Below, in pieces: positions 22,833 to 62,584 of a stretch of 64,000 nt of DNA; the stretch's first letter is position 1; each line of letters starts with the position of its first letter. Source of the DNA: Bacteroidales bacterium. Its GTDB lineage: Bacteria > Bacteroidota > Bacteroidia > Bacteroidales > FEN-979. Position numbers and translations under genes: made by a program. The notes beneath the pieces were generated by a model. It saw nothing but the letters and a program-made list of their open reading frames with translations. It made no database searches and was not told the origin of the DNA. Location of the stretch: assembly GCA_963682005.1 (NCBI GenBank), contig OY820914.1, positions 4,964,979 to 5,028,978 of the forward strand. The letters run 5' to 3'.

Positions 22833-23230
22833 TAGCAGAGCTTAAGGTTCTTCTCGTTGTCATCCGACAAACTCTTGGCTGGGCTGACAGGCGTGGAATG
22901 TATGGAAGAAAAGAAACTGATTGGATTTCTGGTAGCCAACTAAGAGAAAAAACCGGAAGCTCTGAACGAGCTATCACTTCGGCGATAGAAACACTGGTAA
23001 TGAAAAGATTAATCGAAGTTCATGATGATAGGGGACACAAACTTTTATATTCAAAGAATAGACAAGGGAAGATCCGCCTGTATTACAGTCTGCACCCTTC
23101 TGTTTTTAATACTGTGGATAACTCCCTGAAAAGCCCTCTAACTTCTGCAAATTTTGCGGAGGACTTCCGCAAAAATTACGGAACACTTCTGCAAAAAATG
23201 CGGATAACAAAAGAAACTCTACAAAACTAA
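22833..23230 (+). pseudogene. 3' fragment of the rep-like winged-helix gene
   Basis: Continues the 20487 reading frame. The ATG of the tracked 22793 ORF lies just upstream of, and its first codons run through, the IS66 right IR, so it is chimeric. Confidence 0.8.
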
Positions 23231-23240
23231 CTCTTACAAA
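22941..23240 (+). repeat. direct repeat copy 1 (rep 3' end) flanking the Rhs cassette
   Basis: Aligns with 30531-30829; the last ~110 nt are nearly identical and the upstream part is more diverged. Confidence 0.8.
23143..23204 (+). repeat. three 18-bp imperfect palindromes TTCYGCAAAWWWTRCGGA at exact 22-bp spacing (iteron/operator-like)
   Basis: Starts at 23143, 23165 and 23187; the same triplet is conserved in copy 2 at ~30731-30794. Confidence 0.6.
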
Positions 23241-23334
23241 GAGGAAGGAGATTAAGTTTATTCAAGACATTAAATCCTATTACTAATCCCAAAAGAGGTT
23301 CTTTCCAACGTTCTGAATTCATATTTTTATTGTT

Positions 23335-24408: not shown

Positions 24409-27400
24409 TTATTTCTTCTTGTTAGTTCCAGAACTAATAATACTCATTGGTGCTTCTACCGTCCAGCCAATTTTGCTTAATCCATATTGTTGGGCAGCGT
24501 ATGTACCAAGGTTTAATGTACTGCCAGCAAAGCTACCAACCCATGAACCAAATCCCGAACCCAATATTGAACCAGCAACTTTTACTGGATTTACACTATG
24601 ATCCCCAGTAGCTACTTGTGTAGATAAATTAGTTGCACCAGCTATTCCCATAGCGAATTTTATGCTTATATCTGGTCCTGTCATTGCTCCACCAGCATAA
24701 CTAAGACCTACAATTTTAGCATAATCACCAAACGAAGTTTGTTTATTTTGCATTTGATCTTCCAATATCTGACTACCAACATTGAATGTTGTATTTATTG
24801 TTCCTCTAACTACGGCTTGTGAATTAAATAATGTGTTAGCTACTGTACTTGCAACACTGCTCCCTGCAATCATAGCTCCACCTACTGCAGTTGCTCCACC
24901 AACCACTCCAATGGCTGCTCCCGTGGCATATGGGTGATCCATAGCCATCTGCCAACCACCTCCCATATATTGGGCCGCTTGTCCAACTTCTCCTGAAAAA
25001 TTATTCCATGATTGTGTACCAGACAAGTATTCTCCAAACCATTTTCCACTCGGATCACTTAGTATAATCGGATTGTTTCTGGCATAACTATAACTATTTA
25101 ACTGTTGTGGATCATTTAAAAATTTATCTGGATTCCAGAACACCGGATCCTCTGAAATAAACCTCCCAGCCGTGCTTTGATGATAACGGGCGTTTAGATA
25201 GTTTAAGGAAGTGTCTGGGTCATAATGTTGACCGATGTATTGTTTCTGATTCGTGTGGCTCCCAGAGGAGATTCTTTGTGAACCAAAGGGGTAGTAATCG
25301 AGTAATTCTACTTGTCCTCCATTTGAATCTGAAACGACATTGGTTGAACCAAGATGGTCTGGGTGGATATAGTATGGAGTAACGACAGAATTAGCTGTTT
25401 CAATGGTTGACACTAATTGATTACCCGCATATATGTTCTTGGTCTTTTTGGATCCTCCATAGTTGTAATACTGATTTGGATATTCTGTTGTCAGAGTGCC
25501 ATTACTAGATAATACCCTATTACCTTGTTCGTCGTAAAGGTACTCTCGAGTAAATGTTCCGTTAGTGGTTTCAGTCAGTTGATTTTTGTAATTCCAGGTG
25601 TTGGTGAGGGTACCGTCGTCAGTATTGTTACCATTGTGATCGTAGGTGTTTGTGACACTGTTAATTGAAGTGGCAGCGTGGGGGTTAGCGTAGTTGGTGC
25701 CACTGTTTCCTGCGTAAGTATAACTTCCCACTGGACCTGAAGTGATATTTCCAATTGCGTTGTAGGTAAAATTTTGAGTGTAAGGAGTCTGACCAAATGG
25801 CACATCGGTGATAGTGGCAGAAGTCAGACGATTTAGATCGTCATAGGTATAATCGGCTGTCTTGGATCCGCTTGTGCTTGAATCATCCACGATTTCAGTA
25901 ATGTTGCCATCAGCATCATACTCGTATGTGGTCTTTTGAAGACTTGTTGGTACTTGGTTGGTCGTTGATTTGTCAGTTACTCTGTATAAATTATTTGGGT
26001 CGTATGTATTCGTAGTCGTTACTCTATTGGCATAATTTATTTCTGTTGGTTGGTCAGTCGGCGCATAATCAAAATTCGAAATAACATCGGTGAAAGATCC
26101 TCCGCTTTCTTTATATTCTATTTTTTCCAGTAACCCAGCCGAATTGTAAACATAAAGAACTTGAGCATTGTCGGGATAAGTAATTACTAGCATATTACTC
26201 TGGCGATCATGAGTGTATGAAGTGGTGTAAATATTTTTGGTGACAGTTTTTTCCTCACTTGCGACATTCCCATCTGCGTCATATGTGTAATCCGTTTCCA
26301 CTCCACTTAGCATAACCGCGGAACATAGTTTTCCTATACCGTCTGAACATGAATCATAAGTATAGATAATATCTGTGCCAGTTGTTCCTGTAGAATCTTC
26401 AGTTAGTTTTCTGTTTACATCATCATAGGTATAGTCCACCGTATCGCCGTTAGGATTTATGCTTTCCGTCAAATTACCTGAATCATCATAGGTATATGCC
26501 CATGTTCCATAAGTTGCATCATTTTGCGCATGAAGATCTTCAGCCGTTAAACGATGTCCCAAATTATCATAGGTAAAATTCCGGACATTGCCAAGCGCGT
26601 CAGTTGTATTTATTAGATTGCCATTTAGATTCCAAGTGTAGTACGTGGAGTAAGTATAAGAGCCAGTTCTTTCGTCAACTCTCACCAAATTTTTATACGC
26701 ATCGTAGTAATAATTTTTGACTTTTCCACGTGGGTCACTCACGTCAATTTCCCATGGAGTGTAAGAATAAGCGGTAACACCTGACGCGTTGGTCAATGTA
26801 TGAATACGCTGCACGGGATCATAGGCGTATGTCGTATATAATGCTGTGGTTGTAGTTGGAGAAGTCTTGGATGATCCACTCCCTGTATATGGTAAAGATT
26901 CTTTTTGTACCAAACCAAGATTATTGTAAACAGTGTCTTTGACATTAAAGTTGCCAGAAGTTTCTGCCTCTTTTCTCTCTTGAATTAAACGTCCAAGCCC
27001 ATCAAAATATTGATAAGTATTAGCTGTGGTTGAAGAATTAAGATAGTTAACTTTTTGTACAGAGACTGCATTTGAAGTATCTGTATAGACATAAGCAGTT
27101 TTAGCGTCCAAAGTTGAAGGTGATGTTAGATCAGGAATTTTTTCGGTTAGCACTCGTCCAAGCCCATCGTAAGTTGTCTCTTTCGTTAACCCATTTGGAT
27201 CAGTAGTATCTATCACTTTGCCAGTTGAATAGTCATAGGTATATTCTGTGCTATTTGAAAGGGGATCGGTTATTGTGGTTGGGTAAAGGTGATATGTATC
27301 GTAAGAATAGGATGTTGTTTTTCCTCGTTCGTCAGTGGAAGTAATGGGAATACCATAGGTTGTATAGTATGATTTTTGAGTATTAACATTACGTGTCACA

Positions 27401-30400
27401 GAAGCCATTTTTTCAATTTCAGTTGGATTCCCTGCGCCGGTGGTACCAAATGTAAGTTCGTCATAATACGTTCTTGTATCCTGAATTGTTGTCGCGTTTT
27501 GGTCTTGGATAATATCATCGGAGAGTAAACCGATAACATTTTCACCGTCAGAGGCGTAAGAGAAAGACTCCGTTAACATATCATTCCCTGTGTCGGCAAA
27601 TGATCCATCACTACTTCCCGTTACTTCTCCCCAATCAATTTTTTGAGTTAAATTGCCATTAGTATCGTCATAGGTATATTCTTGTGCCGTGTCTTTGTGG
27701 TTATTAGTGCCATCGTAGGTAAGTGTAGTGGTGCGAGTAAGTTTTACAAAATCATGTCCTGTACCAATGTTGTATGAATCCCATTTATTTATTATGTCAG
27801 CATACAAATTATCAGCACCGTCATATTGTTCGACACGATATGGTTTTCCAATTTTTGCGTACGAATCGCTGTATTCACCTAGCGAAGAATTTGTACCATC
27901 TCCTTGATGAAAATATGTTTTTTTTACGTTTCCAACATCATCTGTCACAGAAGTTGAAGCAAAACCTGCAAACTTGCGAGTAAGATAATCATCAAAATAA
28001 TATTTACCTCCTTGGTAAGAATAATTATTAGTTTCCGAATTTCCTAAACCATCATTATTGGTGATCTGAGAAACAACATCTATGGACATAGGTAAATTTG
28101 GATTTAGGAGGTTACTCGATCCATCTTTGAATAACTGTGTTGCTTTGTAAGTTATTTGAGTATTACCACCTTCGGGATATGTAATTTGAGTCAAGTTATT
28201 CACTCTGGAATTTGTCGTATTATTCAAATACACGTAATGTAATCCATCACTGCCTGCTCTAACCAGGTCCACTAAATTATCTCCATTAACATCAATTAAC
28301 TGGAGGCCATGATTTTGATAGTTACTTTGGATAAAAAACTCTTTGTTTCCAGATGAATCTACCTTGTCCGGCATCGTCCAAGTGGAAGAAACATCTGTCC
28401 ATCCAGAACCATTGTTTAAGTAAATTTTAGGAGCATTGATGGAACATGGGACAGCAGTAGGATAAGCAAAATCATTGGCACACACGAAATCAGGTAATCC
28501 ATCGCCATTGATATCTGTCATTCTTACGCCATAATCTCTGTTTGGGGGACCAACCACAAATTGCATCGGAACAGATGCCGACCAAGTAGAATCATAAGTC
28601 CAACCAGAACCGTTGTTTAAATACACATAATGCAATTCGTCATTGCCAGCTCGTACAAGATCAGCTAAATTATCTCCATTGACATCGATTAACTGGAGAC
28701 CATAAACTTGATAATTGCTGATTACAAAATATTCTTTGTTCCCAGATGAATCTATCTTGTCCGGCATCGTCCAAGTGGAAGAAACATCTGTCCATCCAGA
28801 ACCATTGTTTAAGTAAATTTTGGGATCGTTAATATGACATTGAGAAGGAGCACCACCAGTTGGAATATTATTCGCACAAACGAAATCAGGTAGTCCATCC
28901 CCGTTGATGTCTGCCGTTCTAACTCCCTGATCTCTGAAATTGCTACCTGTAAGCAGGAATTGCATTGGAACAGCCGAAGACCATGTGGAATTATAAGTCC
29001 AACCAGAACCGTTGTTTAAATACACATAATGCAATCCATCATTACCGGCTCGTACGAGGTCAGTCAAATTATCTCCATTGACATCGATTAATTCAAGACC
29101 TTGGTTTTGATAGGAACTATTTATAAAATATTCCTTATTCCCCGATGAATCAACTTTGTCCGGCATCGTCCAGGTAGAAGAAACATCCGTCCAGCCAGAG
29201 CCAGTATTTAAATAAATTTTGGGAGCATTGATGGAACATGGGACAGCAGCAGGATAAGCAAAATTATTGGCACATATGAAATCAGGCAGTCCATCTCCGT
29301 TGATGTCTGCCGTTCTTGTACCATAATCCTTGGTGGGAATACCAAGTAAAAACTGCAACGGAACAGCCAAGGACCAGGTGGAGTCATAAGTCCAGTTTGC
29401 CGTTGACGTTTTATAATCAAAATCTGTAGCGGGAAGAACAGTAACATTGTTTGACCCATCCTGACCTGATTCAATTATCGTCTCCAAAAGAGAACCGGTG
29501 CCATTGTCGGCTGTGGTATAAGTAAAATCATATTTTTCTGCCCAGACACTATTTATTTTGGTATTGATTTCACTAATTACATAATTTGATTTAACCGAAA
29601 ACCCAGTAGAATAGGAAATTGGACCGCCTGTTCGACTAGCGGTCGTAAAATTAACTTCAAAAATTCCATCAGTAGTTCCATTCCCGGTATAAACTATTTG
29701 TAATGGATATATCTGACCTGCGTCTTTGTAGTAGGTATAAGAAATATAATTATCGTTAGTATCTCTCACCTCTTCCAGCATCCATTTATAAATATGAGAC
29801 GAATTATTTGGATCATCTTGCCTGGCTTGGGCATTGGCTCCAAAAATATATTGAGTGCCGTCTTTACTTGTAACTACCCAACCACTTCCTGATTTTTCGT
29901 ATTTAATAAAATCACCCAATTCATCCTTGGCTCTGTAATTTGTGGAATCAAGGGCAATTAATTCTCCTGAAAGAGATGAAGAATAATAGTCTTCGGAGAA
30001 AAGCTCTTGGCTTCCTGTTTTATTAATTCTCTCTATACTCGGAATATCTATTGACCAACCAGATCCGATAACTGAATCCAAAACAGAATTGGAACTATTG
30101 TACATTAAAGTTACATCGGGAGTCATTTTATTTCTTCCTGGTGGCACGTTAATGGAATATTTATAAATCATGGCACCAGTAGAATTATCAACATCAGTGG
30201 TAAGACGAGCTTTTTTAGTAGTATTACTATTTAAAATTGGATTTTCTTCAAAATCTTCAGTCAAGGTTTCTAGGTTTTGTTCAATTTGAGGTCCTGATTG
30301 AATATTTGTTTCACCATTATTAACAACTTGGTTGCCTTGATCTATGGTTTCTTCTTCCGCAAATACTTTGACTATAGGATAAATTATAATAAAAAAAGCC

Positions 30401-30471
30401 ACTAAAATAGATAGTGACTGAACCAATGCGCGAACCAAAAAACTTTTTGGTGGCAAAATATTGTTTTTCAT
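24409..30471 (-). CDS. SpvB/TcdB-N + FG-GAP x3 + RHS/YD-repeat polymorphic toxin with glycine-zipper C-terminal domain (2020 aa)
   Basis: N-terminal signal-anchor. GSGWSIDIPSIER (SpvB-like). DINGDGLPDF/VNGDNLxDLV FG-GAP units. Many YD repeats (YTYDxxGN). RHS core end YARNNPIILSDPSGKW, then a 209-aa Gly/Ala-rich tail (24412-25038). Confidence 0.9.
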   Translation of the reverse strand: MKNNILPPKSFLVRALVQSLSILVAFFIIIYPIVKVFAEEETIDQGNQVVNNGETNIQSGPQIEQNLETLTEDFEENPILNSNTTKKARLTTDVDNSTGAMIYKYSINVPPGRNKMTPDVTLMYNSSNSVLDSVIGSGWSIDIPSIERINKTGSQELFSEDYYSSSLSGELIALDSTNYRAKDELGDFIKYEKSGSGWVVTSKDGTQYIFGANAQARQDDPNNSSHIYKWMLEEVRDTNDNYISYTYYKDAGQIYPLQIVYTGNGTTDGIFEVNFTTASRTGGPISYSTGFSVKSNYVISEINTKINSVWAEKYDFTYTTADNGTGSLLETIIESGQDGSNNVTVLPATDFDYKTSTANWTYDSTWSLAVPLQFLLGIPTKDYGTRTADINGDGLPDFICANNFAYPAAVPCSINAPKIYLNTGSGWTDVSSTWTMPDKVDSSGNKEYFINSSYQNQGLELIDVNGDNLTDLVRAGNDGLHYVYLNNGSGWTYNSTWSSAVPMQFLLTGSNFRDQGVRTADINGDGLPDFVCANNIPTGGAPSQCHINDPKIYLNNGSGWTDVSSTWTMPDKIDSSGNKEYFVISNYQVYGLQLIDVNGDNLADLVRAGNDELHYVYLNNGSGWTYDSTWSASVPMQFVVGPPNRDYGVRMTDINGDGLPDFVCANDFAYPTAVPCSINAPKIYLNNGSGWTDVSSTWTMPDKVDSSGNKEFFIQSNYQNHGLQLIDVNGDNLVDLVRAGSDGLHYVYLNNTTNSRVNNLTQITYPEGGNTQITYKATQLFKDGSSNLLNPNLPMSIDVVSQITNNDGLGNSETNNYSYQGGKYYFDDYLTRKFAGFASTSVTDDVGNVKKTYFHQGDGTNSSLGEYSDSYAKIGKPYRVEQYDGADNLYADIINKWDSYNIGTGHDFVKLTRTTTLTYDGTNNHKDTAQEYTYDDTNGNLTQKIDWGEVTGSSDGSFADTGNDMLTESFSYASDGENVIGLLSDDIIQDQNATTIQDTRTYYDELTFGTTGAGNPTEIEKMASVTRNVNTQKSYYTTYGIPITSTDERGKTTSYSYDTYHLYPTTITDPLSNSTEYTYDYSTGKVIDTTDPNGLTKETTYDGLGRVLTEKIPDLTSPSTLDAKTAYVYTDTSNAVSVQKVNYLNSSTTANTYQYFDGLGRLIQERKEAETSGNFNVKDTVYNNLGLVQKESLPYTGSGSSKTSPTTTTALYTTYAYDPVQRIHTLTNASGVTAYSYTPWEIDVSDPRGKVKNYYYDAYKNLVRVDERTGSYTYSTYYTWNLNGNLINTTDALGNVRNFTYDNLGHRLTAEDLHAQNDATYGTWAYTYDDSGNLTESINPNGDTVDYTYDDVNRKLTEDSTGTTGTDIIYTYDSCSDGIGKLCSAVMLSGVETDYTYDADGNVASEEKTVTKNIYTTSYTHDRQSNMLVITYPDNAQVLYVYNSAGLLEKIEYKESGGSFTDVISNFDYAPTDQPTEINYANRVTTTNTYDPNNLYRVTDKSTTNQVPTSLQKTTYEYDADGNITEIVDDSSTSGSKTADYTYDDLNRLTSATITDVPFGQTPYTQNFTYNAIGNITSGPVGSYTYAGNSGTNYANPHAATSINSVTNTYDHNGNNTDDGTLTNTWNYKNQLTETTNGTFTREYLYDEQGNRVLSSNGTLTTEYPNQYYNYGGSKKTKNIYAGNQLVSTIETANSVVTPYYIHPDHLGSTNVVSDSNGGQVELLDYYPFGSQRISSGSHTNQKQYIGQHYDPDTSLNYLNARYHQSTAGRFISEDPVFWNPDKFLNDPQQLNSYSYARNNPIILSDPSGKWFGEYLSGTQSWNNFSGEVGQAAQYMGGGWQMAMDHPYATGAAIGVVGGATAVGGAMIAGSSVASTVANTLFNSQAVVRGTINTTFNVGSQILEDQMQNKQTSFGDYAKIVGLSYAGGAMTGPDISIKFAMGIAGATNLSTQVATGDHSVNPVKVAGSILGSGFGSWVGSFAGSTLNLGTYAAQQYGLSKIGWTVEAPMSIISSGTNKKK

Positions 30472-30530: not shown

Positions 30531-30819
30531 TAGGAGAAAAGACTGGAAGCTCTAAACGTGCATCACTTCTGCAATAAAGACACTGGTAATGAAAAAATTA
30601 ATCGAAGTTAATGATGACAGGGGACACAGACTTTCATATTCCAGGGATCGACAGGGGAAATCCAGGCTCTATTTCAGCCTTACCCCTACTGTCCTAAACC
30701 CTGTGGATAACCCGCTCAAAAGCCCCTTAACTTCCGCAAATTTTGCGGAGGACTACCGCAAAAATTACGGAACACTTCTGCAAAAAATGCGGATAACAAA
30801 AGAAACTCTACAAAATTAA
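30531..30819 (+). pseudogene. truncated, frameshifted second copy of the rep-like gene 3' end (direct repeat copy 2, 30531-30829)
   Basis: 76-aa ORF 30589-30819 is homologous to the C-terminus of the 22833-23230 product. Upstream homology continues to ~30531 with a 1-nt indel. Confidence 0.75.
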
Positions 30820-30979
30820 CTCTTACAAATATAAGCATTAGGCTTATCATCCACCTGACAAATTGACATAATATAAAAACCGGTATAACATTTGAATATT
30901 AGGAGTCCTCTCCTTACCCCAAAGTGCGATGGGTCGATAGGATAGAATATAAATGTTTTATTAACGAATATTAAATACC

Positions 30980-47645: not shown

Positions 47646-47696
47646 GTTGTTTTACTTTTTATGATATTACTTGGGTTAACAAAGTTATTCTTTTTT

Positions 47697-47768
47697 GATG
47701 CTGGATCCTGGATGCCGGATGCCGGATATTTTATCAATATTTTTATCTAGCATCCAGCATCCGGTATC
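47697..47768. repeat. oligomer-repeat hairpin: (CTGGATS)n arm, AT loop, (CATCCRG)n arm
   Basis: GATGCTGGATCCTGGATGCCGGATGCCGGATA ... TAGCATCCAGCATCCGGTATC; lies between the PFOR stop and the DHOD-like start. Confidence 0.8.
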
Positions 47769-47773
47769 TGAAA

Positions 47774-51622: not shown

Positions 51623-53944
51623 ATGGTTTTTCCACCCAATTTTGAACAAAAACTCGGCTTTGACTCCATCCGCCACATCCTGACCGAAAATTGTCTTTGT
51701 CAGCTAGGCAGACAGTATATAAGCGAAATCAGTTTTTCCTCCGATAAAGAGTCCATTTCCTCATCGCTTTTGTTTACCGAGGAATTCCGCAAGGTTTTGT
51801 TGTTTGACGAAGGATTTCCATCGCAGGATTACTATGATATGGTGCAGGAGATCCTGCATATCCGTATTGAGGGAACCTATATGGAACCGGAACGTCTTTC
51901 GGAGCTGAAGCTTTCGCTAGCATCCATCTTTCAGATCATCTCATTCTTCAGGACAAGGTCTGCAGATAAGTATCCTGCATTATTTGCAAAAACTGAAAAC
52001 ATCATCATCGACCCTGCAATCCTGAAGAAGATCGAGAAGATCATTGATGACCGTTCCAATATAAGGGATGACGCATCTCCTGTCCTGAAAAAGATCAGGA
52101 AAGAAAAGGCATCCAAACTGGCCTCTGTGGAAAAAAAGATCGCACAGAGCCTCAAGGCTGCAAGCAAAGCCGGATGGACTCCGGACGATGCAGGAGTCAC
52201 CGTAAGGAACGGAAGGCTTGTGATTCCGTTGTTGGCAAAATTCAAGCGTCAGTTAAGTGGCTTTATTCATGACGAATCCTCAACGGGACAAACCGTATAT
52301 ATGGAACCAGCCGACGTCCTGGAAACGAACAATGAGATAAGAGAACTTGAATATGCAGAAAGACGGGAGATCATCCGGATTCTCATTGAGTTTGCAGACT
52401 TCCTGCGGCCTTTCTGCGATGATCTTCTGCATGCGTACCAGTTTCTTGGATTCATTGATTTTGTGCGTGCAAAAGCATTGTTCGCCATCAGTATTAATGG
52501 CTGCTACCCTTCAAAACTCCTGGATGCACCTTATATCTCCTGGAATGATGCCATCCATCCGTTATTGTACCTCTCCCATTCAAAACAGAACAAGCAGGTT
52601 GTTCCGATGACCTTGTCGCTGAACAGTGGAAACAGGATTCTTGTCATTTCCGGACCGAATGCCGGGGGGAAATCTGTTTGCCTGAAAACGGCGGGGTTGC
52701 TCCAGTATATGCTGCAGTGCGGACTACTCCCGTCCGCCAGGGAAGATTCCGAGTTCGGCATTTTTCATCATCTATTCGTAGATATCGGTGATGAACAGTC
52801 GCTGGAGAATGACCTCAGCACTTACACATCAAAGCTTTTGAACATGAAGTATTTCCTTGAAAACATGGATGCCCGGTCTTTATTCCTTATCGATGAATTC
52901 GGAACTGGTACTGATCCCGGCTTAGGCGGAGCCATGGCTGAAGCTGCACTTATCCGGTTTAATGAAATGAGAGGGTTTGGTGTTGTCACAACACATTATT
53001 CGAACCTGAAGCTCTTAGGAGGAAATGTTGAAGGGATCATAAATGGTGCGATGCTTTTCGATACCCGGAAGATGAAACCCCTCTACCAGCTTAAAACCGG
53101 AAAACCGGGAAGTTCATTTGCCTTTGAGATCGCAAACCAGATAGGCTTTCCGAAAGATGTTCTGAAAAAAGCTTCGGAGCTGACAGGCACCAGGCAGTTG
53201 GATTTTGACCGGCAGATCCAGGAAGTCGAGGTGGAAAAAAATGAATTGGCAAAAAAAACAATGGAAATGAAAGTGGCGGATGAATTCCTCGATGAGATTA
53301 TTAAAAAATACCAGAAGCAGACCGAAGAGCTGGAACGATCCAGGAAGGAGATCCTTGTGAAAGCCCGCGAAGATGCCATGAAATTATTCAATGACACCAA
53401 CCGTCTGATTGAAAAGACCATCAAGGAGATCAGGGAAAGTCAGGCAGATAAAGAAAAGACAAAAAAGCTCAGGGAAGAATTGAATGCTGAGAAGGAAAAG
53501 TTGCAGTTGATGACCGGAGGTCAGAAGTCAGAGGTCAGAAGTCAGCAGTCAACAAACTTAATCCCTTCGACTTCCGACCCCCGACCTCTGATCTCTGAGG
53601 CTAACAGCCAGCATCCAGCATCCGACATCCAGCATCCGGTATCCCGTCCTCCGACTCCCTACCAGGGTTATATAGACGACCTTCACCGTAAGCTGGCCGC
53701 ATTTGAAATGACCCTCGACCTGAGAGGCAACCGTGTGGATGAAGCATTATCCTTATTACAAAGGTATATTGATGATGCGATCATCCTTAACATTTCTGAG
53801 GTCCGGATACTTCATGGCAAGGGTAACGGAGTGCTCCGGCAGGTGACAAAAGATTATCTCAGGTCAGTAAAAGAAGTAAAAAGCCATCACGACGAGGCAC
53901 TGGAACGCGGCGGTCCGGGTGTGACCGTGGTTTCTTTTAAGTAG
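51623..53944 (+). CDS. mutS2: endonuclease MutS2 (Smr domain)
   Basis: Walker A GPNAGGKS, DEFGTGTDP, coiled-coil, C-terminal Smr LDLRGNRVDEAL..ILHGKGNGVLR. Confidence 0.93.
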   Translation: MVFPPNFEQKLGFDSIRHILTENCLCQLGRQYISEISFSSDKESISSSLLFTEEFRKVLLFDEGFPSQDYYDMVQEILHIRIEGTYMEPERLSELKLSLASIFQIISFFRTRSADKYPALFAKTENIIIDPAILKKIEKIIDDRSNIRDDASPVLKKIRKEKASKLASVEKKIAQSLKAASKAGWTPDDAGVTVRNGRLVIPLLAKFKRQLSGFIHDESSTGQTVYMEPADVLETNNEIRELEYAERREIIRILIEFADFLRPFCDDLLHAYQFLGFIDFVRAKALFAISINGCYPSKLLDAPYISWNDAIHPLLYLSHSKQNKQVVPMTLSLNSGNRILVISGPNAGGKSVCLKTAGLLQYMLQCGLLPSAREDSEFGIFHHLFVDIGDEQSLENDLSTYTSKLLNMKYFLENMDARSLFLIDEFGTGTDPGLGGAMAEAALIRFNEMRGFGVVTTHYSNLKLLGGNVEGIINGAMLFDTRKMKPLYQLKTGKPGSSFAFEIANQIGFPKDVLKKASELTGTRQLDFDRQIQEVEVEKNELAKKTMEMKVADEFLDEIIKKYQKQTEELERSRKEILVKAREDAMKLFNDTNRLIEKTIKEIRESQADKEKTKKLREELNAEKEKLQLMTGGQKSEVRSQQSTNLIPSTSDPRPLISEANSQHPASDIQHPVSRPPTPYQGYIDDLHRKLAAFEMTLDLRGNRVDEALSLLQRYIDDAIILNISEVRILHGKGNGVLRQVTKDYLRSVKEVKSHHDEALERGGPGVTVVSFK
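53517..53645 (+). repeat. oligomer-repeat element embedded in frame in mutS2
   Basis: GGTCAGAAGTCAGAGGTCAGAAGTCAG arm, GACTTCCGACCCCCGACCTCTGATC arm, then CAGCATCCAGCATCCGACATCCAGCATCCGGTATC. Encodes GGQKSEVRSQQS...HPASDIQHPVS. Confidence 0.8.
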
Positions 53945-53950
53945 TCCTTT

Positions 53951-54112
53951 AGCTATTGGGTTTTGGCCTTTGGCTTCTTTCATTGGAATCTTGATAACTG
54001 GAAATTTTCATTCCATCACTATCTACATTCAAGGAAACCAACACTAAAATCTACCAGGCTAAAAGCTAACAGCCAAAAGCCAATAGCCAAAAGCCAATAG
54101 CCAATAGCCAAT
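53951..54112. repeat. oligomer-repeat inverted arms (TTGGSYTT / AGCCAAW) with an ~80-nt spacer
   Basis: AGCTATTGGGTTTTGGCCTTTGGCTTC (53951-53977) vs GGCTAAAAGCTAACAGCCAAAAGCCAATAGCCAAAAGCCAATAGCCAATAGCCAAT (54057-54112). Confidence 0.8.
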
Positions 54113-54140
54113 TTAGTTTGTATTTTAATAATTTGAATTG

Positions 54141-54148
54141 TACCTTTG
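54141..54148 (+). promoter_or_regulatory. Bacteroidota -7 box TACCTTTG
   Basis: TAnnTTTG(CA) 23 nt upstream of the ATG at 54171. Confidence 0.5.
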
Positions 54149-54170
54149 CACGTTTTTGAAAAATTGATTT

Positions 54171-55718
54171 ATGAGTTTACGACAAAAATCGAATGAACTG
54201 AAAAGAAGGATGCAGGAAGCCTTCAAAGGTGGTGGCGAACAAGCGACCGAGAAGCAGAAAGCATCGGGTAAAATGACGGCCAGGGAAAGGATCCTTGCGC
54301 TCCTTGATCCCAACACTTTTCATGAGTATGATCTTTTTGTCAAGCATGCAGGCGTTGATTTTGAGATGGATAAGAAATACCTTCCGGGGGATGGTGTAAT
54401 TACAGGGACCGGTTCAATAAACGGATGGCCTGTTTGCATTTTCGCCCAGGATTTCACTGTCGCAGGTGGTTCTTTAGGGTATATGCATGCGAAGAAAATT
54501 TCGAAGATCATGGACCATGCCATGAAAATGAAGGTTCCTTTGATCGGTATCAATGATTCAGGTGGCGCCCGTATCCAGGAAGGGGTTAATTCACTGGCCG
54601 GATATGGAGAAATATTTTATAGAAACACCCAGGCTTCCGGTGTGATCCCGCAAATTTCGGTGATCCTTGGCCCCTGTGCAGGCGGGGCAGTGTATTCCCC
54701 TGCTTTGACGGATTTTGTATTTGTGGTGGACAAAATATCCAAGATGTTCATTACAGGCCCTGAAGTGATAAAGACAGTTCTCGGCGAAGAGATATCCATG
54801 GAAGACCTTGGAGGTGCGCGCGTACATGCCGAAATTACCGGGAATGCCCACTTCTTTGCTGAAAGCGAGGCTGAATGTTTTGAGCAGATCAAACAGCTTG
54901 TCAGTTTCATTCCATGGAACAATGAGAAGAAAGCCGAAACGTTCCCGAAAAAGGCACCAAAGTCGAGAAATTTCAAGATCGATCAGATCTTCCCTACAAA
55001 TCATATGGAGTCTTATGATGTCAGGGGAGTCATTAAAGCCATCGTGGATGATTCGGAATTCTTTGAAGTGCATGAACACTGGGCACAAAATATTATCATA
55101 GGTTTTGCAAGGCTTGACGGGCAAACCGTAGGTTTTGTTGCAAATCAGCCCATGGTGCTTGCTGGCGTACTGGATGTGGACTCCTCCGACAAGGCCGCCC
55201 GTTTTATCCGTTACTGCGACGCCTTCAATATTCCGCTTGTTACCCTCGTTGACCTTCCGGGATACCTCCCTGGCGTGGACCAGGAGCATGCCGGTGTTAT
55301 CCGTCATGGTGCTAAAGTACTTTATGCCTATTCAGAGGCCACCGTTCCAAAACTGACGGTTATCCTGAGAAAAGCTTATGGCGGAGGATACATTGCCATG
55401 TGCTCGCATCATCTGAGGGCTGATTTTGTCTTTGCCTGGCCAACTGCTGAAATTGCAGTCATGGGACCCGAAGGCGCAGCGAACATTATTTTCAGGAATG
55501 AGATCAAATCCTCTGAAAATCCTGAAGAGACCCGTAAGAAACTTATCGAGGACTACCGTACAAAATTTGCGAACCCTTATGTTGCTGCCGCATACGGTTA
55601 CGTCGATGCTGTTATAGAACCGAATGAAACCAGGAATTTTCTGATCCATTCCCTCAATATTGCCACCCATAAACGCGAACCAGTCCCATTCAAAAAACAC
55701 GGTATTCCCCCATTCTGA
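54171..55718 (+). CDS. acyl-CoA carboxyltransferase (methylmalonyl-CoA decarboxylase alpha / propionyl-CoA carboxylase beta type)
   Basis: KMTARERILALLDPNTFHEYD, GGARIQEG, typical 515-aa carboxyl transferase. Confidence 0.9.
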   Translation: MSLRQKSNELKRRMQEAFKGGGEQATEKQKASGKMTARERILALLDPNTFHEYDLFVKHAGVDFEMDKKYLPGDGVITGTGSINGWPVCIFAQDFTVAGGSLGYMHAKKISKIMDHAMKMKVPLIGINDSGGARIQEGVNSLAGYGEIFYRNTQASGVIPQISVILGPCAGGAVYSPALTDFVFVVDKISKMFITGPEVIKTVLGEEISMEDLGGARVHAEITGNAHFFAESEAECFEQIKQLVSFIPWNNEKKAETFPKKAPKSRNFKIDQIFPTNHMESYDVRGVIKAIVDDSEFFEVHEHWAQNIIIGFARLDGQTVGFVANQPMVLAGVLDVDSSDKAARFIRYCDAFNIPLVTLVDLPGYLPGVDQEHAGVIRHGAKVLYAYSEATVPKLTVILRKAYGGGYIAMCSHHLRADFVFAWPTAEIAVMGPEGAANIIFRNEIKSSENPEETRKKLIEDYRTKFANPYVAAAYGYVDAVIEPNETRNFLIHSLNIATHKREPVPFKKHGIPPF

Positions 55719-56626: not shown

Positions 56627-56668
56627 TTTTTTACTTTTGATTTTTCACTTTTGACTTTTGACTTTTTC
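56627..56668. repeat. tandem CTTTTGA-type oligomer array
   Basis: TTTTTACTTTTGATTTTTCACTTTTGACTTTTGACTTTTTC directly upstream of the ATG at 56670. Confidence 0.7.
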
Positions 56669-56669
56669 A

Positions 56670-57574: not shown

Positions 57575-57668
57575 CATTGATGAGGTGATGAGGTGATGAG
57601 GTGAAAGATAATTGGCTATGTGACTTGATCACTCCATCACTTCATCACTTCATCACTCCATCACTTGA
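57575..57668. repeat. oligomer-repeat hairpin (GATGAGGT)x3 / (TCACTYCA)n
   Basis: TCATTGATGAGGTGATGAGGTGATGAGGTGA ... TCACTCCATCACTTCATCACTTCATCACTCCATCACTTGA. Confidence 0.85.
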
Positions 57669-61022: not shown

Positions 61023-61090
61023 TGACCCTGTGACCCTGTGACCCTGTGACCTTGTGACTTGGTGACCAGGTGACTTTGTGACCTTGTGGC
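61023..61090. repeat. tandem 8-mer array TGACCYTG x ~8.5
   Basis: TGACCCTG x3, TGACCTTG, TGACTTGG, TGACCAGG, TGACTTTG, TGACCTTG. Flanked by GTGAGATATG / CATCATCTCAC. Confidence 0.9.
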
Positions 61091-61158
61091 CCAATCACCA
61101 TCATCTCACAAATTTTTCCTAAATTGCGCCACGATTTTAAGCTTCATTTACCATTAAT

Positions 61159-61188
61159 TGTTCACTATTCACTTTTCACTATTCACTG
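61159..61188. repeat. tandem TTCACTATTCACT x2
   Basis: Ends 6 nt upstream of the ATG at 61194. Confidence 0.75.
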
Positions 61189-62489: not shown

Positions 62490-62490
62490 G

Positions 62491-62584
62491 AGGTGGTGAA
62501 CTGGTGAACTGGTGAGTTGGTGAGTGATTAAAGGTCAAAGGTCAGATTATCATAATTCATAATTCAAACTCATAATTCATAATT
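62491..62584. repeat. three adjacent oligomer arrays: (GGTGARYT)x4, (AAGGTCA)x2, (CATAATT)n
   Basis: GGTGGTGAACTGGTGAACTGGTGAGTTGGTGAGTG; AAGGTCAAAGGTCA; CATAATTCATAATTCAAACTCATAATTCATAATT. Confidence 0.85.

Follow-up and report, generated by a model that had tools for sequence, protein, structure and literature searches.

The mutS2 gene considered here lies in a stretch of 64,000 nucleotides (nt), hereafter called the window, from a Bacteroidales bacterium (GTDB FEN-979; assembly GCA_963682005.1, contig OY820914.1, positions 4,964,979-5,028,978 of the forward strand), and contains an in-frame element built up from heptanucleotide repeats. This element is likely to be a tolerated and neutral in-frame expansion of heptamers, specific to its lineage and located in a probably disordered tether that joins the coiled coil of MutS2 to the C-terminal Smr domain. 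All coordinates refer to the window unless a locus is named; tandem arrays were called by Tandem Repeats Finder (TRF), domains by Pfam, and the significance of folding was assessed against 200 dinucleotide shuffles.

The protein belongs to the MutS2 (Smr/MutS) family, as it combines a domain V ATPase (MutS_V, residues 341-520, E 4.9e-26) with a C-terminal Smr domain (residues 698-773, E 2.6e-22). Both domains are present and in frame in 120/120 homologues among the matches listed. In the AlphaFold model (m85c7d343e4e8, built on 38 homologues), a helix covering residues 511-625 is followed by a coil with a predicted local distance difference test score (pLDDT) below 50 at residues 623-678, to which no secondary structure is assigned, and by the Smr domain (residues 681-773), which is modelled with confidence; judging from this model, the tether formed by residues 623-678 is probably disordered. 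The element occupies positions 53516-53644 and encodes the 43 residues 632-674 (GGQKSEV...QHPVS). A preliminary description of the window had placed an in-frame repeat stretch between the coiled coil and the Smr domain, a position with which the open reading frame (ORF), Pfam and AlphaFold all agree, except that its coordinates were one base off the codon boundaries. Since an independent Logan assembly (L001) encodes an identical MutS2 protein, on a contig which matches the window exactly, the repeat stretch is not an assembly artefact.

According to TRF, the element contains tandem arrays of 7-nt units, with a unit length and a copy number within the limits set for such repeats (units of 5-11 nt, at least about three copies): (GTCAGAA)x4.6 at 53520-53551, with a perfect 14-mer x2 at 53517-53545, and (CCAGCAT)x4.3 at 53608-53637, also read as a 21-mer x2 at 53604-53644. 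The order previously reported, an arm, an approximately complementary arm and then a CAGCATC array, is confirmed by TRF and by the alignment of the arms (53517-53543 and 53569-53595), which show 81% complementarity along 27 nt and are separated by 25 nt; across all the alignments considered, complementarity amounts to 77-81% over 27-30 nt with a gap of 18-25 nt. The inverted arms are thus internal tandem arrays and not the termini of the element. The CAGCATC array is flanked by a 19-nt direct repeat, CGACTTCCGACCCCCGACC (53568-53586) and CGTCCTCCGACTCCCTACC (53645-53663), 79% identical, which might be the mark of an array inserted into an older (CCGACNN)n tract.

The comparison with the closest relatives, P0002/P0003 (the same as locus L082; 70-71% identity) and L092 (69% identity, one of five loci obtained by a scan of metagenomes), indicates where the additional residues come from. 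These relatives are 21 amino acids (aa) shorter than the query at exactly the position of the element. With respect to L082, the query is 63 nt longer at this place, i.e., nine heptamers or 21 aa, and arm 1 (35 nt) and arm 2 (28 nt) together make up 63 nt. At the site of the query array, L092 possesses a single CCGGTCAGAA, within the codons ACT TCC GGT CAG AAT, where the query reads ACC GGA GGT CAG AAG TCA GAG GTC AGA AGT CAG; these codons of the query, L082 and L092 were compared by eye, indel blocks being badly placed in alignments of such low-complexity DNA. The seed GGTCAGAA, a single copy in L092, is tandemly multiplied in the query, which suggests that arm 1 expanded in place from this seed. 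The more remote, repeat-free loci L010 and L040 possess tethers of unrelated sequence (54 and 34 aa, respectively), and none of the orthologues L010, L040, L082 and L092 contains a homologous linker of similar length; the stretch is lineage-specific. The element does encode 43 residues, as had been stated, but only about 21 of them (63 nt) are a net gain; all the relatives of the clade possess some 27-35 aa of tether. Similarly, the idea of a repeat insertion or expansion tolerated inside the gene stands as a tolerated lineage-specific expansion, not as one inserted unit.

The reading frame appears to have left its imprint on the element. Since 7 and 3 have no common factor, successive heptamers of an in-frame array pass through all three phases of reading. 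Both GTCAGAR and CAGCATC are free of stop codons in every phase, and the complement of GTCAGAR contains TGA. In the frame of the gene, a perfect complement of arm 1 would read ACT TCT GAC CTC TGA, whereas the actual arm 2 reads ACT TCC GAC CCC CGA. Of the five positions at which the arms mismatch, four show a C in place of the T of the perfect complement; one of these T-to-C differences replaces an in-frame stop codon (TGA) by CGA, and two others replace Leu by Pro. A degenerate arm 2, with CGA instead of TGA, would be explained by selection for an open frame, under which only stop-free versions survive. In the same gene of three relatives, an (AATTAGG)n array (L085 10434-10465, L086 10362-10394, L087 10362-10394) is kept open only by altered units (AATGAGG) that avoid an in-frame TAG.

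When a gain or loss of 7 or 14 nt was simulated in either array, a stop codon appeared within 12-60 codons and the Smr domain was lost. Such behaviour, together with units of 7 nt that are no multiple of three, evokes a phase-variable switch, in which the slippage of one or two heptamers would turn off the Smr domain and keep the ATPase core, in the manner of the heptanucleotide repeats which mediate phase variation in Haemophilus (PMC2651432). This is nonetheless very unlikely, considering that the arrays are short and interrupted, only the 14-mer x2 being perfect instead of a long perfect tract, that the Smr domain remains in frame in all 120 listed homologues, that the Logan assembly agrees exactly with the window, and that three independent samples of one relative (L087, and L090 and L094, which duplicate it in the metagenome loci scan) share one and the same repeat-bearing tether. 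The 24-nt upstream flank had no exact match in JGI metagenomes, no strain variants were seen, and the cluster to which the query belongs has a single member.

The host protein itself offers a permissive context for such growth. In nearly all of the 80 more distant Bacteroidota loci (L002-L081), a domain with the pattern GDxVRIxGQxxxGEVxE...FG occurs at the position of the tether; in Tangfeifania, Pfam names this domain MSSS (PF20297, 'MutS2 and Smr-associated SH3 domain'; in L026, residues 675-713). Pfam found no PF20297 match in either the query or L082, its closest relative, and the GDxVRIxGQ...GEV motif was absent by motif comparison in the query clade, in L010 and in L040. The MSSS/KOW-like SH3 domain is missing throughout a clade of Bacteroidales MutS2 proteins (window, L010, L040 and L082-L089). 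On the basis of these comparisons, the query clade has lost this folded domain and retained a bare tether. The tether could be delimited in 94 homologues, where it measures between 27 and 75 aa (median 35) and its sequences are unalignable; as far as sequences can tell, the tether is hypervariable in both respects and would be under no detectable constraint of sequence or length.

A protein suited to comparison is the MutS2 of Bacillus subtilis, which acts in ribosome rescue on collided ribosomes, and whose KOW domain binds uS10 and aids recruitment to the collided ribosomes, the C-terminal domains being joined by flexible loops (PMC10897456). The query shares with this protein the ATPase core, the coiled coil and the C-terminal Smr domain, but where the B. 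subtilis protein displays lever, KOW and SMR domains, the KOW/MSSS domain is gone from the query clade and a low-complexity tether alone joins the coiled coil to Smr. In this respect, the designation of mutS2 as a DNA-repair gene in the preliminary description was too narrow, MutS2 being devoid of mismatch-recognition domains and involved in ribosome rescue in B. subtilis (PMC10897456).

Two further ideas arise from the loss of the domain. A longer tether may have been selected afterwards to let Smr reach its target, the repeats being merely the source of length; the absence of MSSS/KOW from the clade and the wide variation of tethers, several of them lengthened by arrays, would fit such an adaptive lengthening. 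It is, however, highly improbable, because the median tether measures just 35 aa, about 30 aa suffice in the closest relatives, no trend to a preferred length is apparent, and arrays also occur at two other sites of MutS2 and in other proteins. That the loss of KOW is linked to the proliferation of repeats is not supported either: L010 and L040 lack KOW and yet show no arrays in 10 kb, and the link is further weakened by some KOW-bearing loci which hold a few arrays.

The preliminary description had also tied the element to the intergenic repeats of the window. Nine arrays of period 7 or 8 are distributed among six intergenic spacers (Table 1), mutS2 being the only array-bearing coding sequence. 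The array-bearing spacers cluster in the last quarter of the window and their units differ. The common architecture is real, since three intergenic hairpins with arms of 27-29 nt, 76-88% complementary, are of like design to the mutS2 element. The 18-mer CATCCAGCATCCGGTATC is likewise exactly repeated at 47751-47768 (chance expectation 0), where 13 consecutive 11-mers map, and a further match found by blastn, 31 nt long at 84%, involves the other arm of the 47697-47768 hairpin. The other proposed tie fared less well: the 11-mer GCTAACAGCCA does match the downstream repeat, at 54065, but as a sign of kinship it is at chance level, with 5 isolated 11-mer matches observed versus a mean of 3.1 in shuffled elements. 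By sequence, it is only the CAGCATC array that shares its vocabulary with the intergenic hairpins of the genome and of its relatives.

These ties, namely the hairpin architecture, the exact 18-mer and the 31-nt match, as well as the imperfect 19-nt direct repeats around the CAGCATC array, would be expected if the whole 129-nt unit were a mobile palindromic element, akin to a miniature inverted-repeat transposable element (MITE) or a Rickettsia palindromic element (RPE), transposed in frame from an intergenic copy; in-frame palindromic insertions of this kind are classic in Rickettsia (PMC10969869). Such an origin is unlikely. In the blastn comparison of the element with the 64-kb window, matches are confined to the 3' array and do not exceed 34 nt, the hairpin part (53517-53598) occurs only once there, and no near-identical full-length copies, as expected of a MITE or RPE family, were found. 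The GTCAGAR unit was seen at no other site in the sequences examined (the window and the loci of relatives), and the intergenic elements are alike in design, not in sequence. At the element, the junctions of which are blurred by the poor alignment to relatives, neither terminal inverted repeats nor target-site duplications could be clearly made out, and the single-copy seed of L092 suggests local growth.

Folding calculations deserve separate attention. The element folds with -48.3 kcal/mol (z -3.7) on the + strand and with -71.2 kcal/mol (z -4.8) on the - strand, in both cases better than 200/200 shuffles. The C changes of arm 2 result in A.C mismatches in the mRNA and in G.U pairs on the antisense strand, so that the G.U pairs produce the better antisense fold and no antisense RNA is needed to explain it. 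An antisense-RNA reading was accordingly rejected, the antisense fold being explained by the T-to-C differences of arm 2, partly forced by the reading frame. The three intergenic hairpins of the window show no consistent strand preference. A scan of 53200-54300 revealed neither promoter-like nor terminator-like sites in the element on either strand, intrinsic terminators included, and no canonical terminator U-tract occurs 3' of the hairpins at 47692-47773 (by eye) or 53948-54112 (by the scan). The element has no Rfam match, the window giving only two tRNA hits at the gathering threshold.

The stability of the sense fold, significantly above that of shuffles, raises the question of a functional mRNA structure, a hairpin slowing ribosomes between the core and Smr for the benefit of co-translational folding or of an autoregulation of MutS2, a protein which in B. 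subtilis acts on collided ribosomes (PMC10897456). Strong sense hairpins are also predicted in the tethers of L083, L085 and L086. However, with significance in only four of the nine tethers folded (the window and these three), and none in L082, L084, L087, L088 and L089 (dinucleotide shuffles), the hairpin is not a conserved property of the tether. The mRNA stem of the query is, in addition, weakened by the A.C mismatches and surpassed by the antisense fold, most homologues have short repeat-free tethers, and covariation lends no support; a functional structure is therefore quite unlikely.

The behaviour of arrays in related genomes places the element in a broader frame. DNA was obtained for eight relatives (L082-L089), most of them picked because their tether peptides looked repeat-like, which makes this a biased sample. 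Their tethers are composed of quite distinct units: (GGATACA)x10 with (ATCCTGC/ATCCTGG) arms and a sense-strand fold of -93 kcal/mol in L083, about 20 copies of AAATCTS in L084, (GGATACR)x5 with (ATCCCGG)x4 in L085, TCCCGCA arrays in L086, GGCGATC and TAATTCC arrays in L087, a 21-mer of AATCCCS units in L088, and a 16-mer x5 in L089. In array-bearing relatives, arrays occur in nearly every spacer, with a density of up to about one per kb; among the 90 sequences in which density was counted (89 loci and the window), 61 have none. Arrays are also found inside other coding sequences of relatives (acyltransferase, MMR_HSR1 GTPase, NusG-like protein, HPPK) and at two further sites of MutS2, after query residues ~126 and ~299, e.g., PVSSIQYPASSIQHP... 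in P0100. Translated arrays in conserved genes (acyltransferase PF19576 and MMR_HSR1 GTPase) and at further MutS2 sites were located in L083, L086 and L087, and the 7-aa repeats encoded by the arrays of relatives include HPASSIQ and PVSSIQY. In all, 64 canonical units were counted in the loci examined, some of which recur at non-homologous sites across genomes (CATCCNG/GGATGCN, AATTAGG, CGATAGG, ACGGATG), the CATCCNG unit being common to the window, L083, L085 and L086. The arrays in MutS2 are thus recurrent and part of a genome-wide phenomenon.

Because units are shared at non-homologous sites, complementary pairing is frequent and arrays follow almost every gene, a more active origin is conceivable, in which the arrays of the clade would be written by a sequence-specific process (templated synthesis or hairpin-primed copying), also into coding DNA at three permissive sites of MutS2. 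This is improbable; if true, the hairpin of the tether would be a recent footprint of the process, with a potential feedback on MutS2 as a protein dealing with branched nucleic acids or stalled ribosomes.

For the preferred explanation, that of a tolerated neutral expansion, the following course may be proposed. In a clade whose genomes are loaded with arrays of 7-8 nt, often in complementary, hairpin-capable pairs, the loss of the SH3/KOW-like MSSS domain, as seen together with the variability of the tether, would have left the tether free to accept length. Probable replication slippage from the local GGTCAGAA seed, combined with the spread of the CATCCNG family, would then have produced the nine heptamers, amounting to a gain of 63 nt or 21 polar, Pro/Ser-rich residues. 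Only versions with a total length that is a multiple of three and with no stop codons would have persisted. The resulting peptide would just lengthen the flexible tether, and the hairpin potential would be a by-product rather than a conserved signal; the expansion is probably neutral.

Several points weigh against this explanation. The alignment of low-complexity DNA is unreliable, and the complementary arm 2 is not accounted for by simple slippage. Several of the relatives were pre-selected for repeat-like tethers, and the unbiased estimate at the protein level is a clear 7- or 8-aa periodicity in 9/94 tethers. Neutrality and stability are presumptive for this species. Finally, mutS2 is the sole array-bearing coding sequence in the 64-kb window, which may leave room for a site-specific role.

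Table 1. Coordinates of the mutS2 element, of its protein context, and of related arrays and inserted genes in the window and in the loci of relatives.
Feature	Coordinates	Strand	Remarks
mutS2 ORF	51623-53944	+	773 aa; MutS_V ATPase and Smr, without MSSS/KOW-like SH3 domain
Long predicted helix (coiled coil/lever, residues 511-625)	53153-53497	+	AlphaFold model; ends just upstream of the element
Very-low-confidence tether (residues 623-678)	53489-53656	+	AlphaFold pLDDT <50; contains the entire element
Arm 1, five GTCAGAR-type heptamers including the perfect 14-mer GAGGTCAGAAGTCA x2	53517-53551	+	Encodes GGQKSEVRSQQS
Spacer (loop) between arms	53552-53568	+	
Arm 2, degenerate heptamers GACTTCC GACCCCC GACCTCT GATCTCT	53569-53598	+	77-81% complementary to arm 1
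3' array, GCTAACAGC then (CAGCATC/CATCCNG)n	53600-53644	+	Encodes ANSQHPASDIQHPVS; GGATGCN/CATCCNG unit family
Arm-2-like direct repeat CGTCCTCCGACTCCCTACC	53645-53663	+	79% identical to 53568-53586
Smr domain	53714-53941	+	Pfam; AlphaFold; in frame 3' of the element
Intergenic array spacers	47697-47768, 53948-54112, 56628-56669, 57578-57665, 61023-61187, 62490-62584		
Intergenic hairpin, (GATGCYG)n + (CAGCATC)n	47692-47773	.	Only window locus significantly matching the element
Intergenic hairpin, (ATTGGSY)n + (AGCCAAW)n	53948-54112	.	Directly 3' of mutS2; same architecture, other unit
Third intergenic hairpin	57578-57664		Arms and loop
Translated arrays of relatives	L083 10366-10489, 11028-11159, 15870-16459, 17029-17146; L086 14904-14992, 16238-16668; L087 16353-16733		
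Inserted small genes of relatives	L083 9480-9851; L086 9345-9758, 20104-20469; L087 9471-9842, 20814-21179		

Some additional observations concern the surroundings of the element. In relatives, small genes which encode PF05635 '23S rRNA IVP'/bAvd-like or PDDEXK_3 proteins are inserted in the interval separating PFOR from mutS2 and at other places of the syntenic block; the window shows merely a 315-nt gap at the PFOR-mutS2 position. Elsewhere in the window, two direct copies of about 165 nt (23081-23245 and 30670-30835), some 7.6 kb apart, are close to 90% identical, a value read from the alignment, the mean over all 226 columns being 88%. Near-palindromic units of 22 nt (ACTTCYGCAAAwwTTrCGGAA) are found three times in each copy, in addition to a 14-mer x2.3. 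The two copies bracket a 2020-aa ORF (24409-30471, - strand), inside which a 399-nt tandem repeat x2.8 of 79% identity (28226-29316) presumably encodes a repeated 133-aa domain.

With respect to known repeat systems, heptanucleotides represent the most abundant class of long simple sequence repeats (LSSRs) in many bacteria, mostly intergenic and under-represented in genes (Mrazek 2007 via PMC4679880; PMC4692102). Examples are the cyanobacterial short tandemly repeated repetitive (STRR) type sequences and GGGAATC/GGGGAYT of Xanthomonas and Nostoc (PMC4679880; Rehm 2015, PMC4692102), and inverted heptamer arrangements have been noted in Xanthomonas (PMC4692102). The Bacteroidales arrays resemble LSSR/STRR sequences in being short tandem 7-nt arrays, present at many loci per genome, mostly intergenic and near gene ends, scarce in coding regions, with a few units common to loci and related genomes and with occasional inversions capable of forming stem-loops. 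The distribution over many, mainly intergenic loci is apparent both from the spacers of the window and from the density of about one array per kb in relatives, and the sharing of units applies to CATCCNG (window, L083, L085, L086) but not to GTCAGAR. They differ from LSSRs by the Bacteroidales lineage, the many different units (64), the common pairing of complementary arrays and the translation in housekeeping proteins.

The TAACTGA repeats of Beggiatoaceae, Cyanobacteria and some Bacteroidetes (MacGregor 2015, PMC4679880) are also mainly intergenic heptamers. A minority of them occur inside ORFs, at the periphery of proteins or outside functional domains, where they encode 7-aa repeats and where the stop-containing orientation is excluded (PMC4679880). 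They nevertheless correspond to a single unit, located near start codons and devoid of hairpin pairing, whereas the units differ here and the array lies mid-protein between two domains. RPEs and in-frame MITEs (PMC10969869) offer another parallel, a palindromic repeat of an otherwise intergenic family being read through in frame and adding a peptide segment at a structurally permissive site of a housekeeping protein; but RPEs are about 150 bp long, conserved in sequence and present in many near-identical copies, and the mutS2 element, by contrast, is made of 7-nt units, without a full-length copy in the window, and appears to have grown at least partly in place. Contingency loci built on simple sequence repeats, e.g., in Haemophilus influenzae (PMC2651432), equally consist of tandem units inside ORFs that are no multiple of three, so that a change of one unit frameshifts the gene; they possess long perfect tracts with documented on/off length variants, as opposed to the short, interrupted tracts found here, for which no variants were seen. 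No description of such a Bacteroidales repeat system was found in the literature searched, most subscription journals lying outside the search. The novelty lies in the host lineage, in the hairpin of heptamers inside an ORF, and in its location in a tether left by the loss of a domain.

For mutS2 itself, little changes beyond the addition of about 21 residues to a flexible tether. The mutS2 element is real yet ordinary within its genome, and greater interest attaches to the repeat system of the whole lineage. In this lineage, heptamer arrays are abundant in most of the spacers examined and are repeatedly translated in conserved proteins (HPASSIQ, DAGYRIQ), and the stop codons of these arrays appear to have been purged by selection. 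As a warning for annotation, differences in length and low-complexity inserts of these proteins are products of repeats and do not represent new domains. The lineage provides a natural system for the origin and spread of short tandem repeats and of their inverted copies, and it also suits the questions of which protein sites tolerate repeats and of how MutS2 works without its KOW-like domain.

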